Assembly: GCA_964586755.1 (NCBI GenBank)
Contig: CAZPHJ010000003.1
Span: 1 to 31,138, forward strand
Reading direction: 5' to 3'
DNA from: an uncultured Candidatus Saccharibacteria bacterium
Lineage (GTDB): Bacteria; Patescibacteriota; Minisyncoccia; Phycocordibacterales; UBA9973
DNA length: 31,138 nucleotides
A model generated the notes under the pieces. That model had not been told where the DNA came from. It searched no databases and saw nothing but the letters and a program-made list of their open reading frames with translations. The position numbers were made by a program, and so were the translations under genes. Below are positions 14,318 to 27,286 of this stretch, piece after piece. Position 1 is the first letter of the stretch. Every line of letters begins with the position of its first letter.

Positions 14318-14362
14318 AAAAGTTCATAAAGTTTGTAAAGTTCATAAAGTCATTCAAGTCTT
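14318..14362. repeat. 9-mer tandem arm downstream of the four-helix-bundle gene
   Basis: aaaagttca-taaagtttg-taaagttca-taaagtcat-tcaagtctt. Confidence 0.9.
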
Positions 14363-14707
14363 GAGTGTCTTAATAAACCCAGACAGTATTTTTGAAATTT
14401 CGCTTGCATGATCAGCAAGTACCAGATACTGTTGCTTGTTAATATACTCAAGATCTAGGGCAAGCGCCAGCATAGAACGAACTTCGCCCGATGAACCTTT
14501 GGCTATAAAAAGAAAATTTCTAAACTCCTTGTTCGTCTGCCTCTCGTACCCTTCTGCAATATTATTCATTATTGAAACAACTGCCCTCTCGATTTGGTTT
14601 TTGAATGAAAAATCTTTACATCCAACAAACGTTGAATAAATTATAAGCGAAAAAACTTTGGCTTTTTGCCAAGCAACAATATCTTCAAATTTTTGTATGG
14701 TCGTCAT
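14354..14707 (-). CDS. Four-helix-bundle protein (23S rRNA intervening-sequence protein / S23 family, Avd-related fold)
   Basis: FEDIVAWQKA...IY...FKNQIERAVVSIMNNIAEGYER...F..FL.IAKGSSGEVRSML..A.DL.YI...I..ILSGFIK is the family consensus pattern. Confidence 0.95.
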   Translation of the reverse strand: MTTIQKFEDIVAWQKAKVFSLIIYSTFVGCKDFSFKNQIERAVVSIMNNIAEGYERQTNKEFRNFLFIAKGSSGEVRSMLALALDLEYINKQQYLVLADHASEISKILSGFIKTLKT

Positions 14708-14713
14708 GGGTTT

Positions 14714-14758
14714 ACTTTATAAACTTGATGAACTTTACAAACTTTATGAACTAATACT
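14714..14758. repeat. 9-mer tandem arm upstream of the four-helix-bundle gene (inverted relative to 14318-14362)
   Basis: actttataa-acttgatga-actttacaa-actttatga-actaatact; overlaps the AI-2E gene stop. Confidence 0.9.
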
Positions 14759-21267: not shown

Positions 21268-21297
21268 GCGCTCATTTTATCACATAAAATGAGAGTA

Positions 21298-21400
21298 AAA
21301 AGTTTATAAAGTTCATAAAGTTTTTAAAGTCATACAAAATCAATACATTTGGGTTCACTTGATGAACTTTACAAACTTTATGAACTTGACGAACTAATTA
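21298..21400. repeat. Empty copy of the four-helix-bundle flanking element (both 9-mer arms, 23-nt core)
   Basis: Left arm aaaagttta-taaagttca-taaagtttt-taaagtcat (21298-21333). Right arm acttgatga-actttacaa-actttatga-acttgacga-actaatta (21357-21400). The 30-mer acttgatgaactttacaaactttatgaact is identical to 14723-14752. Confidence 0.9.
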
Positions 21401-21985
21401 CAGATGACTCTCTGAAAGCGCCTGATTGATGTCGCGAATGAGACGATGTTGATATGCAATATCAGAAAATTCTTCTGGTATTTGCGCTTCTCCACCCAAA
21501 GTTACCGCTACGCCCGGAATCGCTCGAGAAAGATATCCGAGAGAAATAAGGATTCGCGCCACACAGAGAAGCTCAAGGGCTCGGAAATCCTCTGGCGATT
21601 TTCCGCCTGTTTCCAGCAAGGCATAGGTACGGACGAGAATTTGAAATATTTCTTCACTCGCCTCTTCTCCTGTCACCAAACGAATGATGAGTGATGAGAC
21701 GTGTGCAAGAATTCGTTCACTTTCCTTGATGTGCAATATGTGAGTGTATGAATGTAATGGCGAAGCAGTAGTCACGCGCCAAATTTCTTTACCTCGAACC
21801 AAATCCACTTGCGCACGCGAAAAATCCTGCAGTGTGAATCGCAACTTCGAAGAAATTTTACGAATACCTTGCGCATGTGCGTACACAAGTCCCAATTCGC
21901 GCGTATACAAAAAGAGGACCTTTGAATCCTCCCCTTTTGCCCGCGATCCGAGCACAAATGCTTCTGTGTGATGAATGTGGTGCAT
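21398..21985 (-). CDS. recO: DNA repair protein RecO
   Basis: TEAFVLG...GEDSKVL.LYTRELGLV.A.AQGIRKISSKLRF.LQ.F (N-terminal OB fold). Confidence 0.88.
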   Translation of the reverse strand: MHHIHHTEAFVLGSRAKGEDSKVLFLYTRELGLVYAHAQGIRKISSKLRFTLQDFSRAQVDLVRGKEIWRVTTASPLHSYTHILHIKESERILAHVSSLIIRLVTGEEASEEIFQILVRTYALLETGGKSPEDFRALELLCVARILISLGYLSRAIPGVAVTLGGEAQIPEEFSDIAYQHRLIRDINQALSESHL

Positions 21986-23875: not shown

Positions 23876-26800
23876 TTACACTTTTTCAATTACAATCTCA
23901 CTTCCGGCGAATGTAACACTCTCTGCAAGTACGGTTTTTTTCAAATCACCTTCGAATCCAGCGACTGTATCTTTGGCATTTTCTGGAAGTGTGAGGGTTA
24001 TGACATCGCTTGGAGTAAGTCCTTGTTTCTTTCGAGTGTCTTGAATTGCGCGCACAAGCTCACGATACTCCCCTTCACGCTTGAGCTCGGGAGTGATTTC
24101 CGTATCAAGTTCCACCTCACTTTCAATTGCAGCATCTTGAACTATTTCTTTAACATTCAATTCATCTTTCAAAATTTCATAGTATTCGACTTTCAACTTT
24201 TCACTTTTCACTTTCAACTTGTTTAGGGGTTGTCGCACAGCAAACTTTGCTTTCTGTCGAGCTTCCATTCCAAGCGTCACAGTTTCGCGAACTTTTTGCA
24301 TTTCTTCCAAGACTTTCTGACTTTCGACTTTTGACTCATATTCTGGCCAATTTTCAAAATACACGCTCTTCTCTCCTCCGAGTCGAAGCCAAATATCCTC
24401 TGCCGCAAATGGTGCAAATGGCGCCATGAGCTTCGCTGTAGTTTTCAATACAAAATACAATGTCCGCTTTGCTTCCGCATCGCCATCTTTCATACGATCA
24501 CGACTGCGTCGCACATACCAAGTCGAAAGATCATCAATGAACTCTCGAAGTGCGCGTACTGGTTCGAGCAGTTTGTAATTATCGAGATTCTCCGTCATCG
24601 TCATTGTAAGCTGGTTGAGACGAGCAACAATCCATTGATCGAGGATGTTTTCTGACTGAGCATATTCCCCACTTTCGAGCGCTGTGTCGCGATAGAGCTC
24701 ATAAAAAGCGAGTACGTTATAGAGCAAGTTGAATACTTTGTTGTGGAGTTCCGCAACAGTCTTCTCGTCGAAGTTTTTTGATTCACCTGGCTGGTTCACC
24801 GAGTACATCCACAAGCGAAGCGTATCTACTCCGTATTTTTCAATCATCTCCCACGGGTCAACAATGTTTCCAAGTGACTTACTCATCTTCTTTCCTTCTG
24901 CATCCAGAATGTGTCCGAGACAAACTACATTCTTATATGCGAGTCCGCGACCCATAAGCATTCCAATAGCGTGGAGTGTATAGAACCATCCGCGAGTTTG
25001 GTCGATTGCTTCACAAATAAAGTCTGCCGGATATGCAATCTCTTTTGTCGCAAATGGATAATGATCTTGTGCAAACGGCATCGCACCTGAGTCGAACCAG
25101 ACGTCCATCACTTCATTCACACGCTTCATCGGCTCGCCATTTTCAGAAACGAGTTCTACATGATCGATATATGGTCGATGTAGATCAAGTTCCCAATTGT
25201 GATTGTGCGGGAATGGTACATACGGAACCTCACGCACTTCGGCATTTTCAAAATAGTGAAAATCTTTTTTGTTCTCAATCATCTTGAGTGATTCCTCTGC
25301 GCCAAATCCTTGAATACCAGCCATAAGAAGCCAAGATGGTCCCCCATGACTCACGATAAGTACTTTGCGGTTCTGGAATTTGATCTCAACATCATGTATA
25401 AAATCCATCATCCAACCTTTTACCGTGTTGTATGATTCTCCTCCTTCTGGACCATTGTAAAAATTTTCTACCGTTTTTGGAAAATCTTCATGATATTTAC
25501 TCCATGGGCCTTTGTTATATATTCCAATATCCATCTCGCGAAGACGTTCGTCAAAAAGCATCTCCACTTCCCCGCCGAGTCCTTCGCGGATAATGTCCGC
25601 AGTCTCTCGAGTGCGAACGAATGGCGATGCGATTATGAGATCAATCCCCAATTCCTTGAGTTTTGAAATCTGGTCGGCGACTTGTTTACGACCAAGCTCG
25701 GTGAGGTGCACCGGCTCGTTTGGATCAGCACTCGCCATACCTTTTAGATTATGATCTGCTTCTCCGTGGCGAATAACATGGTATATATTACCAGATTTTT
25801 TGGCTTTCTTTTTCATTTCATCCAGCGAGCCAATCACTTCGATTTTTCCTGATTCTGTCATCCAGATTGGAAGTGGTGTTCCCCAGTATCGTTCACGAGA
25901 AATCGCCCAATCCTTAATATCTTTTAGCCAATCGCCAAAACGACCATCACGGATATATGATGGCTCCCAATTTATTTTTTTGTTTTCCTCGATGAGCCCC
26001 TCTTTAATCTTTGGATCACTCATGCGGATATACCAAGAATCTCGCGCGTAATAGATGAGCGGAGTCTTACAGCGCCAACAATGTGGGTATGAGTGTTCGT
26101 ACTTTTCTTTTTTAAACAAGAGTCCGCGATGTGCAAGGTCCTTGATGATGTCAATTGCAACATCCTCGTCTTTTACAAATCGTCCTTCGAGAAAATCTGT
26201 GCCAGCGATGAATGTTCCATCGAGCGCCACCATATGATGCTTCGGCAGTCCGAGCTTGGTTCCGAGTTCGAAGTCATCTGCACCGTACATTACGGCTGTA
26301 TGAACAACACCAGTTCCGTCAGTCGTAGTAACAAAATCTGCTGGATATACCTTGAATGCTTTTTCGAGTGAAGCTTGTCCTTCAATTTGAGTTTTGAGAT
26401 AAGGATAGAGCGGTTCGTATTCAAACCCGATAAGGTCCAAGCCTTTCATTTTTTCTACAATTTCAAAACCTTCTGGAAGCACACTAGCGCGCGCTTCGGC
26501 GAGAATCAAAAATTCTTCACCAACTTTTACTTTTACATATTCAATATCATTCCCCACTGCAAGCGCGACGTTGCCTGGCAATGTCCATGGAGTTGTCGTC
26601 CACGCAAGTATGTATGTATTTTCCGGACTTTCAACTTTCGACTTTATAACTTTGAACTTGGCCGTGACCGACAGGTCACGGTCGTCCTGATATCCCTGTG
26701 CAAGTTCGTGCGACGAAAGCGCAGTTCCACAGCGCGGACACCATGACACAATACGATAGTCTTTGTAGACGAGTCCTTGATCGTTTACTTTTTGCAACAC

Positions 26801-27286
26801 ATTCCACACAGACTCGATATATGAGTTGTGATACGTCACATACGGATTCTTTTGATCCACCCAATAGCCGATACGGTCGGTAAATTTTTCCCACAAATCT
26901 GTGTATTGCCAAACGCTTTCTTTACACTTGTCGTTGAACTTCGCGATACCATATTCTTCAATCGCTTTTTTGGAATTGAGGCCGAGCGCTTTTTCTACTT
27001 GGAGTTCCACTGGAAGTCCATGCGTATCCCATCCCCCTTTTCGACGAACATGGAATCCCTGCATAGTTTTATAGCGAGGAATCGCATCTTTGAATGCACG
27101 CGCTTCGAGATGGTGAATTCCTGGTTTACCATTCGCAGTTGGTGGACCTTCGAAGAATACAAACTCACCTTTTGGCGAATCTTTTTTGAGTGTCTCCTCA
27201 AAGACATTATTCTCCTTCCAAAAACCGAGAACTTTTTCTTCTCGTTCTGCTGCGGCTGATTTTGGCTTATTTTCAGGTGTTTCCAT
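23876..27286 (-). CDS. ileS: Isoleucyl-tRNA synthetase (type 2) with an inserted histidine-phosphatase domain
   Basis: EGPPTANGKPGIHH, GWDTHGLPVE, WTTTPWTLP, HSYPHCWRC, WAISRERYWGTP, DVWFDSG, EAIDQTRGWF, KMSKS. Insert approx. 25225-25790 carries RHG...SP..R..ET...E...SHG. Confidence 0.98.
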   Translation of the reverse strand: METPENKPKSAAAEREEKVLGFWKENNVFEETLKKDSPKGEFVFFEGPPTANGKPGIHHLEARAFKDAIPRYKTMQGFHVRRKGGWDTHGLPVELQVEKALGLNSKKAIEEYGIAKFNDKCKESVWQYTDLWEKFTDRIGYWVDQKNPYVTYHNSYIESVWNVLQKVNDQGLVYKDYRIVSWCPRCGTALSSHELAQGYQDDRDLSVTAKFKVIKSKVESPENTYILAWTTTPWTLPGNVALAVGNDIEYVKVKVGEEFLILAEARASVLPEGFEIVEKMKGLDLIGFEYEPLYPYLKTQIEGQASLEKAFKVYPADFVTTTDGTGVVHTAVMYGADDFELGTKLGLPKHHMVALDGTFIAGTDFLEGRFVKDEDVAIDIIKDLAHRGLLFKKEKYEHSYPHCWRCKTPLIYYARDSWYIRMSDPKIKEGLIEENKKINWEPSYIRDGRFGDWLKDIKDWAISRERYWGTPLPIWMTESGKIEVIGSLDEMKKKAKKSGNIYHVIRHGEADHNLKGMASADPNEPVHLTELGRKQVADQISKLKELGIDLIIASPFVRTRETADIIREGLGGEVEMLFDERLREMDIGIYNKGPWSKYHEDFPKTVENFYNGPEGGESYNTVKGWMMDFIHDVEIKFQNRKVLIVSHGGPSWLLMAGIQGFGAEESLKMIENKKDFHYFENAEVREVPYVPFPHNHNWELDLHRPYIDHVELVSENGEPMKRVNEVMDVWFDSGAMPFAQDHYPFATKEIAYPADFICEAIDQTRGWFYTLHAIGMLMGRGLAYKNVVCLGHILDAEGKKMSKSLGNIVDPWEMIEKYGVDTLRLWMYSVNQPGESKNFDEKTVAELHNKVFNLLYNVLAFYELYRDTALESGEYAQSENILDQWIVARLNQLTMTMTENLDNYKLLEPVRALREFIDDLSTWYVRRSRDRMKDGDAEAKRTLYFVLKTTAKLMAPFAPFAAEDIWLRLGGEKSVYFENWPEYESKVESQKVLEEMQKVRETVTLGMEARQKAKFAVRQPLNKLKVKSEKLKVEYYEILKDELNVKEIVQDAAIESEVELDTEITPELKREGEYRELVRAIQDTRKKQGLTPSDVITLTLPENAKDTVAGFEGDLKKTVLAESVTFAGSEIVIEKV
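24188..24222 (-). repeat. In-frame heptamer array inside ileS (encodes KLKVKSEKLKVE)
   Basis: Plus strand gactttc-aactttt-cactttt-cactttc-aacttgt. Confidence 0.85.
24311..24339 (-). repeat. In-frame 7/8-mer array inside ileS (encodes ESKVESQKV)
   Basis: Plus strand gactttct-gactttc-gactttt-gactcat. Confidence 0.75.
26626..26661 (-). repeat. In-frame 7/8-mer array inside ileS (encodes KFKVIKSKVES)
   Basis: Plus strand gactttc-aactttc-gactttat-aactttg-aacttgg. Confidence 0.8.

Follow-up and report, generated by a model that had tools for sequence, protein, structure and literature searches.

Background

Many bacterial genomes contain an excess of heptameric simple sequence repeats (SSRs), and slippage of the polymerase has been put forward as its cause (PMC4692102, citing Mrazek et al. 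2007). Examples of heptanucleotide repeats are the cyanobacterial short tandemly repeated repetitive (STRR) sequences, the GGGAATC repeat of Xanthomonas and the GGGGAYT repeat of Nostoc (PMC4692102). Rickettsia palindromic elements (RPEs) are discrete palindromic elements of ~100-150 bp that are inserted whole and represent 'selfish DNA in protein-coding genes' (PMC10969869, PMC1779305). The tandem repeats found in the open reading frames (ORFs) of Borgs have units divisible by three, are perfect and often long, and give rise to disordered regions (PMC9879509). Here we describe short arrays of the word AAAGT that are read in frame within ileS, the isoleucyl-tRNA synthetase (IleRS) gene of an uncultured Candidatus Saccharibacteria bacterium, located on the first 31,138 nucleotides of contig CAZPHJ010000003.1 (the window, to which all coordinates refer unless a contig is named), and compare them with these systems.

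An earlier note on this DNA had interpreted the arrays as the product of an intergenic repeat acting on coding sequence, with RPEs and the Borg repeats as parallels. A first search of the literature on in-frame repeats in Patescibacteria returned nothing. Our comparison of the gene, the genome and its relatives indicates that the arrays probably represent a lineage-wide class of short 7-8 nt tandem arrays that were written in frame into tolerant loops and originated locally, as opposed to RPE-like insertions. The dominant unit of this class in the sub-clade is (G)AAAGTN(N), and the same word builds the hairpin arms around genes of the PF05635 family.

Arrays in the ileS gene

The product of ileS matches the Pfam families tRNA-synt_1 (3.5e-117), His_Phos_1 (1.9e-31), Anticodon_1 (2.2e-31) and DUF5915 (6.6e-14), and the solved structure closest to it is that of the IleRS 8c8w (E 6.8e-237). 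The gene contains three AAAGT arrays, situated where the earlier note had placed them:

23876-27286, minus strand: ileS, ORF and translation of 1136 aa, class I IleRS
26627-26659, minus strand: array A, five (A)AAGT units with spacings of 7, 8, 7 and 7, encoding K210-S220 (KFKVIKSKVES)
24312-24331, minus strand: array B1, three AAAGT units with spacings of 7 and 8, encoding K986-V992 inside E984-V992 (ESKVESQKV)
24189-24220, minus strand: array B2, five (A)AAGT units with an exact 7-nt period (spacings 7, 7, 7 and 7), encoding K1023-V1033 (KLKVKSEKLKV)

All three occupy the sense (minus) strand of the gene and consist of a 7-nt unit repeated head to tail in at least three copies, and Tandem Repeats Finder assigns period 7 to each of them alike. 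The peptide over site B2, K1023-E1034, reads KLKVKSEKLKVE. The whole genome contains ~13 such arrays, and the presence of three of them in ileS, which makes up 0.5% of the genome, agrees with the earlier suggestion that this gene is enriched for them.

Two kinds of shuffling were used to evaluate chance. The two-unit pattern AAAGTNGAAAGT has four matches in the 31-kb window, every one within ileS, whereas 0.06 are expected under dinucleotide-preserving shuffles and none of 100 shuffles reached four. When the protein was held fixed and codons were redrawn from the gene's own usage (5000 trials), three arrays arose in ileS in a single trial; the per-site probability of the observed AAGT count was 0.013 at A, 0.18 at B1 and 0.0002 at B2. 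Site B1, taken alone, is not significant given its peptide and is not convincing by itself. The 7-8 nt periodicity in ileS is a property of the DNA that is out of codon phase; the earlier description of the arrays as DNA-level repeats is borne out by the synonymous shuffles and by antisense copies in other genes, which encode different peptides (LSTFNF).

The structural setting was derived from an AlphaFold2 (AF2) model of IleRS built from 14 orthologues, of which secondary structure alone was used as the model is of moderate quality (mean predicted local distance difference test 72.7, predicted template modelling score 0.53). In this model site A takes in the last part of strand 200-215 together with the turn (216-223) of a beta-hairpin leading into the editing domain (WTTTPW, 229-234). 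Site B1 runs from the end of a coil that follows the anticodon-binding helices into the opening turn of helix 987-1012, and site B2 takes up strand 1021-1026 and loop 1027-1032 and reaches into the beginning of helix 1033-1043. The three sites are thus predicted to be short surface elements. The assignment of the arrays to variable regions is supported in that they fall at indel-prone positions of the IleRS alignment; they are not long disordered linkers.

The His_Phos_1 domain of this protein is embedded within the synthetase at aa 504-666 (window 25289-25777), and its RHG motif and second histidine (R506, H507, G508, H647) are invariant among 14 orthologues. IleRS measures ~1140-1200 aa in all order-level relatives, which marks this domain insertion as old and conserved.

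Distribution among relatives and conservation of array cores

IleRS orthologues are present in all 30 related genomes searched, and their identity to the IleRS of the source genome (G000) is 93% for G013, 81% for G004 and 79% for G015. Site A is a 15-nt (5-residue) insertion carried by G000, G013 and G004 only; it is absent from G015, from all other relatives and from structure 8c8w. Site B1 does not differ in length from its counterparts in relatives, but its sequence has been rewritten and in this form is found in G000 and G013 only, with G004 and G005 reading LGSSGKV and LGSSEKV, respectively; the rewrite is young and affects the loop that follows the anticodon-binding domain. Site B2 involves no indel, and at the same place G004 has a 7-periodic AAAGT array, G013 has AAAGCT-like units and the distant G023 has the peptide KLKVKNEKLK; the array is written over a Lys-rich strand and turn and the beginning of a helix in the C-terminal domain. 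The claim that the arrays create new peptide consequently stands for site A, where residues were gained in frame at a tolerated surface position (+5, at a hairpin tip), but not for the rewrite at B1 and the overprint at B2, neither of which changes the length of the protein. The earlier note had also reasoned that its reading would suffer if relatives encoded the same peptides with synonymous codons that break the period. At site A both G013 and G004 keep the period, and at B2 the G023 peptide, with its partly different codons, is a weak instance of such a case.

The AAAGT word also forms intergenic arrays of period 9 (described below). Among the 31 genomes, period-9 AAAGT matches occur only in G000 (28), G004 (41) and G013 (20), which are exactly the genomes that carry the site A insertion, and the insertion and the repeat family therefore share the same taxonomic range. 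Triple-heptamer AAAGT matches are few in genomes other than these three. Array load shifts fast within the genus, with G004 having about four times as many triple-heptamer matches as G000 (55 vs 14) and the closest relative, G013, having only 4.

Other units occupy equivalent positions in relatives. The IleRS loop at aa 868-880 contains period-7/8 arrays of GATACAA in G004, of ACTAGAA in G015 and of the 8-mer AGAGCAAN in G005, and no array in G000. The RsmE-like gene has AAAGCT units in G000, as one antisense copy located exactly where the AAAGT array of G004 lies. No shared ends, conserved flanks or target duplications were found around the 15 arrays compared.

Conservation at synonymous sites was evaluated for arrays chosen in G000 (ileS, L22, trmD and pheT) and compared with G004, in which B1 is absent and contributes few codons. 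Codons for identical residues were assigned to the core or spacer class by the position of the third base. Synonymous sites have diverged strongly: in ileS, the same codon is used for only 54% of identical residues between G000 and G004 and for 62% between G000 and G013. Core synonymous codons are identical at 27 of 29 positions as compared with 17.6 expected (codon-specific background, Poisson-binomial P = 5.4e-5), whereas spacer codons are identical at 5 of 14 as compared with 5.8 expected, and the rare codon AAG is retained at all 7 of its core positions. For all nucleotides, the G000-G004 identity is 91% in cores, 65% in spacers and 74% in the genes overall. A first Fisher value (P = 5e-6) carries an ascertainment caveat in that the arrays were picked in G000, and the result holds when the background is conditioned on the G000 codon. 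Similarly, the cores at sites A and B1 are unchanged between G000 and G013 while the spacers differ, together with one flanking amino-acid change per site. The AAAGT word is retained also at positions at which the protein places no demand on it, and the spacers drift neutrally. The arrays are thus more than decaying relics, and simple decay does not explain the conserved cores.

Arrays in other genes and intergenic hairpins

Period-7 arrays are read within several other genes of the source genome:

L22 (ribosomal protein), tail: peptide KVIKSKVES, with DNA identical to that of array A of ileS at 27 of 28 nt
TrmD: peptide ESRKSKVKSKV
PheT: peptide KVESGKSKV; a second, antisense copy is read LLSTFNF
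RNase H protein: array in the ORF
279-aa protein: array in the ORF

Compared with G000, the in-frame arrays that G004 has in addition are either indels or rewrites that leave the length unchanged. Sense arrays with a gain in length occur in a ValRS-type synthetase (+12 aa), a helicase (+5), LeuRS (+3) and PheT (+9), and an identical 29-nt string is found in the ValRS and helicase inserts. PheT has sense arrays at two sites in this genome, further sense arrays lie in LepA (QKSKVESGKY), TrmD and L22, and array length differs between the two species by 2 aa in TrmD and by 9 aa in PheT. The LepA array was left out of the comparison since the lepA region on G000 contig C5 (~23898-24326) is partly N. 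Antisense arrays giving LSTFNF-type peptides are present in G004 in the ArgRS gene adjoining ileS, in RNase HII, in the RsmE-like gene and in the ValRS tail. Sense and antisense arrays number ~14 and 5 distinct sites, respectively, in G000 and G004 together. As the antisense arrays encode unrelated peptides, the factor common to these sites is the DNA and not the peptide. One loop of PheT has an antisense array in G000 (contig C28, 3334-3352, LLSTFNF) and a sense array in G004 (L034, 2801-2826, KVESAKSKV), for which possible explanations are that the array was inverted in place, that the two copies are halves of a single hairpin or that they originated independently.

The source genome (692 kb, 81 contigs, 87.6% complete) has AAAGT as its top 5-mer for both period-7 arrays (10) and period-9 arrays (19), with AAAGT arrays at a density of ~1 per 17 kb. 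The period-9 arrays (AAAGTTYAT) are intergenic inverted arms, some of them gene-less and others around 115-117-aa PF05635 genes (window 14319-14752 and contig C26). Two such hairpins lie in the window:

14319-14359, plus strand: period-9 AAAGT arm of hairpin I1, which brackets a PF05635 gene (39-nt arms, 87% complementary)
14714-14752, plus strand: partner ACTTT arm of I1, pairing with the arm at 14319-14359
14354-14707, minus strand: 117-aa gene between the I1 arms, encoding a 23S-rRNA-intervening-sequence protein (four-helix bundle; Pfam PF05635, 5.6e-32)
21295-21401, unstranded: gene-less hairpin I2 between two genes, with period-9 AAAGT and ACTTT arms (36-nt arms, 83% complementary) and a 35-nt loop

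Many intergenic arms combine one 7-nt unit with 9-nt units, and the PF05635 cassette of contig C26 has 7/8-nt arms. These mixed arms, along with the first rank of AAAGT at both periods, confirm the earlier observation that the ileS arrays are built from the word of the intergenic arms. The coding arrays and intergenic arms share one word and one set of genomes, but differ in period and architecture. The period-9 form was not found inside recognised genes, with a few copies lying within short unverified ORFs, and two of the three frames of its sense strand are open.

A second, weaker family of arrays is based on the word AAAGCT with period 7/8. Its members are mostly intergenic or hairpin-forming (G000 C7 10944-11015, C12 11669-11704 and C21 6583-6618, among others).

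Discussion

We rank local origin of the arrays first, as the probable explanation, and the insertion of pieces of a hairpin element second, as an unlikely one. Local origin is preferred because two of the three ileS sites show no change in length, because the arrays lack defined ends and partner arms, and because other units fill the same loops in relatives. The arrays may have arisen at Lys/Val codon seeds rich in AAAG, through slippage during replication or through template switching over short distances; one such seed is the AAG TTT AAA GT within the codons for the conserved KFKV of site A. Fixation would then be limited to events in which the net change in length is a multiple of three (7 + 8 = 15 nt at A, none at B1 and B2), which introduce no stop codon and whose product is tolerated by the protein. 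Because a 7-nt period does not match the triplet code, the same rotating K-V-E-S-x-K-x peptide results from every entry frame; it is hydrophilic and suits surface hairpin tips and loops; the antisense L-S-T-F-x-F peptide is hydrophobic and is rarer in genes. The rotating frame and the lack of stops in units with C or G spacers make the 7-nt form compatible with ORFs and account for the greater number of sense (hydrophilic) than antisense copies. Once in place, the AAAGT cores are kept at the DNA level, perhaps by selection on the word or by a homogenising process.

Several observations weigh against this account. The array units are imperfect, whereas fresh slippage yields perfect copies, and the near-identical strings in unrelated genes (site A and L22; the ValRS and helicase inserts of G004) would also be expected if a preformed sequence had been copied. 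In two other metagenomes, contigs at ~3% divergence span B1 and B2 ungapped, and the changes that they carry at 24312 and 24328 (V to A and V to I) disrupt two cores of B1, so that maintenance of the cores is not universal. No change in copy number and no indels were seen at the ileS arrays in contigs of four other metagenomes, although contigs hide rare variants, and there is thus no sign of ongoing slippage. The TrmD, PheT site 1 and L22 arrays are common to G000 and G004 and missing in the closer G013, which looks ancestral at these sites; this distribution needs parallel origin or recombination. Sliding identity along ileS, trmD, pheT and L22 was too noisy to reveal recombination tracts, save at pheT aa 146-195, where the G000-G004 nucleotide identity is well above that of G000-G013 or G000-G015 in this tract only; the sequence comparison suggests a recombination mosaic around the array.

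The reading of the earlier note, in which single arms or decayed halves of a mobile AAAGT hairpin behave as RPE-like selfish DNA that was inserted in genes and survived in frame, seems to us unlikely. The arrays do match the hairpin family in word and in the genomes that carry it, the 7/8-nt arms of the C26 cassette resemble the coding arrays, and the near-identity of site A and L22 and the 29-nt string shared by the ValRS and helicase of G004 would fit insertion, as would the opposite orientations at one PheT site if these represent two halves of one hairpin. Low-complexity strings are, however, expected to match by chance now and then, and nothing shows a piece of an intergenic element deposited in ileS, where we found no partner arm, conserved terminus or target duplication, and where B1 and B2 are unchanged in length. 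Nor did we obtain support for the proposal that the intergenic repeat itself acts on coding DNA, as its abundant period-9 arm form was not found in any recognised gene despite having two open frames out of three on the sense strand, and the same IleRS loops are filled by different units in relatives.

The synonymous conservation raises a further alternative, a functional cis-code in which runs of AAAGT would be recognised in DNA or mRNA by a lineage-specific factor, with the PF05635 protein of the hairpin cassettes as a candidate, and selection keeps the word inside essential ORFs such as ileS. The conserved core positions beside neutral spacers, the retention of the rare AAG codon and the intact cores of G013 at A and B1, with changes confined to spacers, are as this reading would predict. 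We nevertheless consider it doubtful, and somewhat less probable than insertion, given that the arrays are patchy (G013 lacks those of TrmD, PheT and L22 and has the fewest triple-heptamer matches of the three genomes), that B1 cores are broken in near strains and that the unit differs at the same site between related genomes. The arrays might also be a by-product of linker peptides rich in Lys, Val, Glu and Ser combined with A-rich codon usage. This would account for B1, whose AAGT count is attained by 18% of the synonymous shuffles, and for the K-rich sequence of distant IleRS at B2 (KLKVKNEKLK in G023) and at B1 (TKVNEKL in 8c8w). It is rejected at the level of the whole gene by the synonymous shuffles, above all at B2, and is difficult to reconcile with the excess over dinucleotide shuffles or with antisense arrays that give unrelated peptides, leaving it highly improbable. 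Phase variation was rejected on the basis of the imperfect units, the essential nature of the gene and the lack of observed length variants.

At the level of single genes, a 7-nt DNA repeat that is not a triplet can write new peptide into essential enzymes without breaking them, with the same product whatever the entry frame. The repeat habit is clade-wide in these tiny-genome bacteria and remodels the loops of ribosomal proteins as well as of tRNA synthetases. What these data add is the conservation of the repeat word at synonymous sites against drifting spacers, which makes the question of junk or signal directly testable and ties the coding arrays to the PF05635 hairpin cassettes, themselves still unexplained. 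In annotation and phylogenetics, segments of this kind should be regarded as driven by DNA and not be taken as protein-level homology.

Comparison with known systems

The RPE and Borg parallels drawn by the earlier note hold only loosely. As in the RPEs, DNA that is also found between genes sits in frame in housekeeping genes and adds surface peptide while function is kept. Unlike RPEs, which are whole palindromes (PMC10969869, PMC1779305), the ileS runs are 20-35 nt long and have a single orientation, with no palindrome or defined ends, and two of the three cause no change in length; the gene has AAAGT-sense units only, with no ACTTT partner and no conserved flanks. The Borg repeats resemble the arrays in comprising tandem repeats in both intergenic DNA and ORFs that yield new peptide, evolve fast and have independent origins (PMC9879509). 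They differ in that the ileS unit of 7-8 nt, with variable spacers, is not a multiple of three, so that the frame rotates, and in that the copies are few, imperfect and located in short structured surface elements.

Within the genome, the PF05635 hairpin cassettes (window 14319-14752) share with the ileS arrays the AAAGT word and the same three genomes, and include mixed 7/9 arms and one cassette of 7/8-nt form. Each cassette has a pair of inverted arms that lie at gene boundaries and mostly have a period of 9, whereas the ileS arrays are of single orientation and period 7/8, and no ACTTT array that could serve as a pairing arm is present on the ileS sense strand. The genomic density of AAAGT arrays is far below that of the known DNA uptake sequences (USS/DUS), in which a single fixed word is densely distributed across the genome and uptake is biased.

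The closest likeness is to the bacterial heptanucleotide SSR and STRR repeats (PMC4692102), which share with the ileS arrays a 7-nt head-to-tail unit that is particular to each lineage, and with the AAAGT family as a whole the inverted stem-loop arrangements and the strong turnover of length and sequence among close relatives. The AAAGT arrays are likewise over-represented relative to chance, have a lineage-specific unit and differ sharply in number among related genomes. A scan for four AAAGTNN units, with one genome per species, gave matches of which those listed come from many phyla and are mostly perfect intergenic runs; the AAAGTNN heptamer as such is not clade-specific, and the scan is silent on origin. 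The heptanucleotide SSRs described so far are mostly intergenic and near-perfect (PMC4692102), whereas the ileS arrays have 3-5 units with loose spacers and a strict 5-nt core. The AAAGT arrays also stand apart from these cases in being read in frame in essential genes and in having cores that are conserved at synonymous sites. The ileS arrays thus belong to the known over-represented heptameric repeats, here placed in frame in tolerant loops of essential genes.

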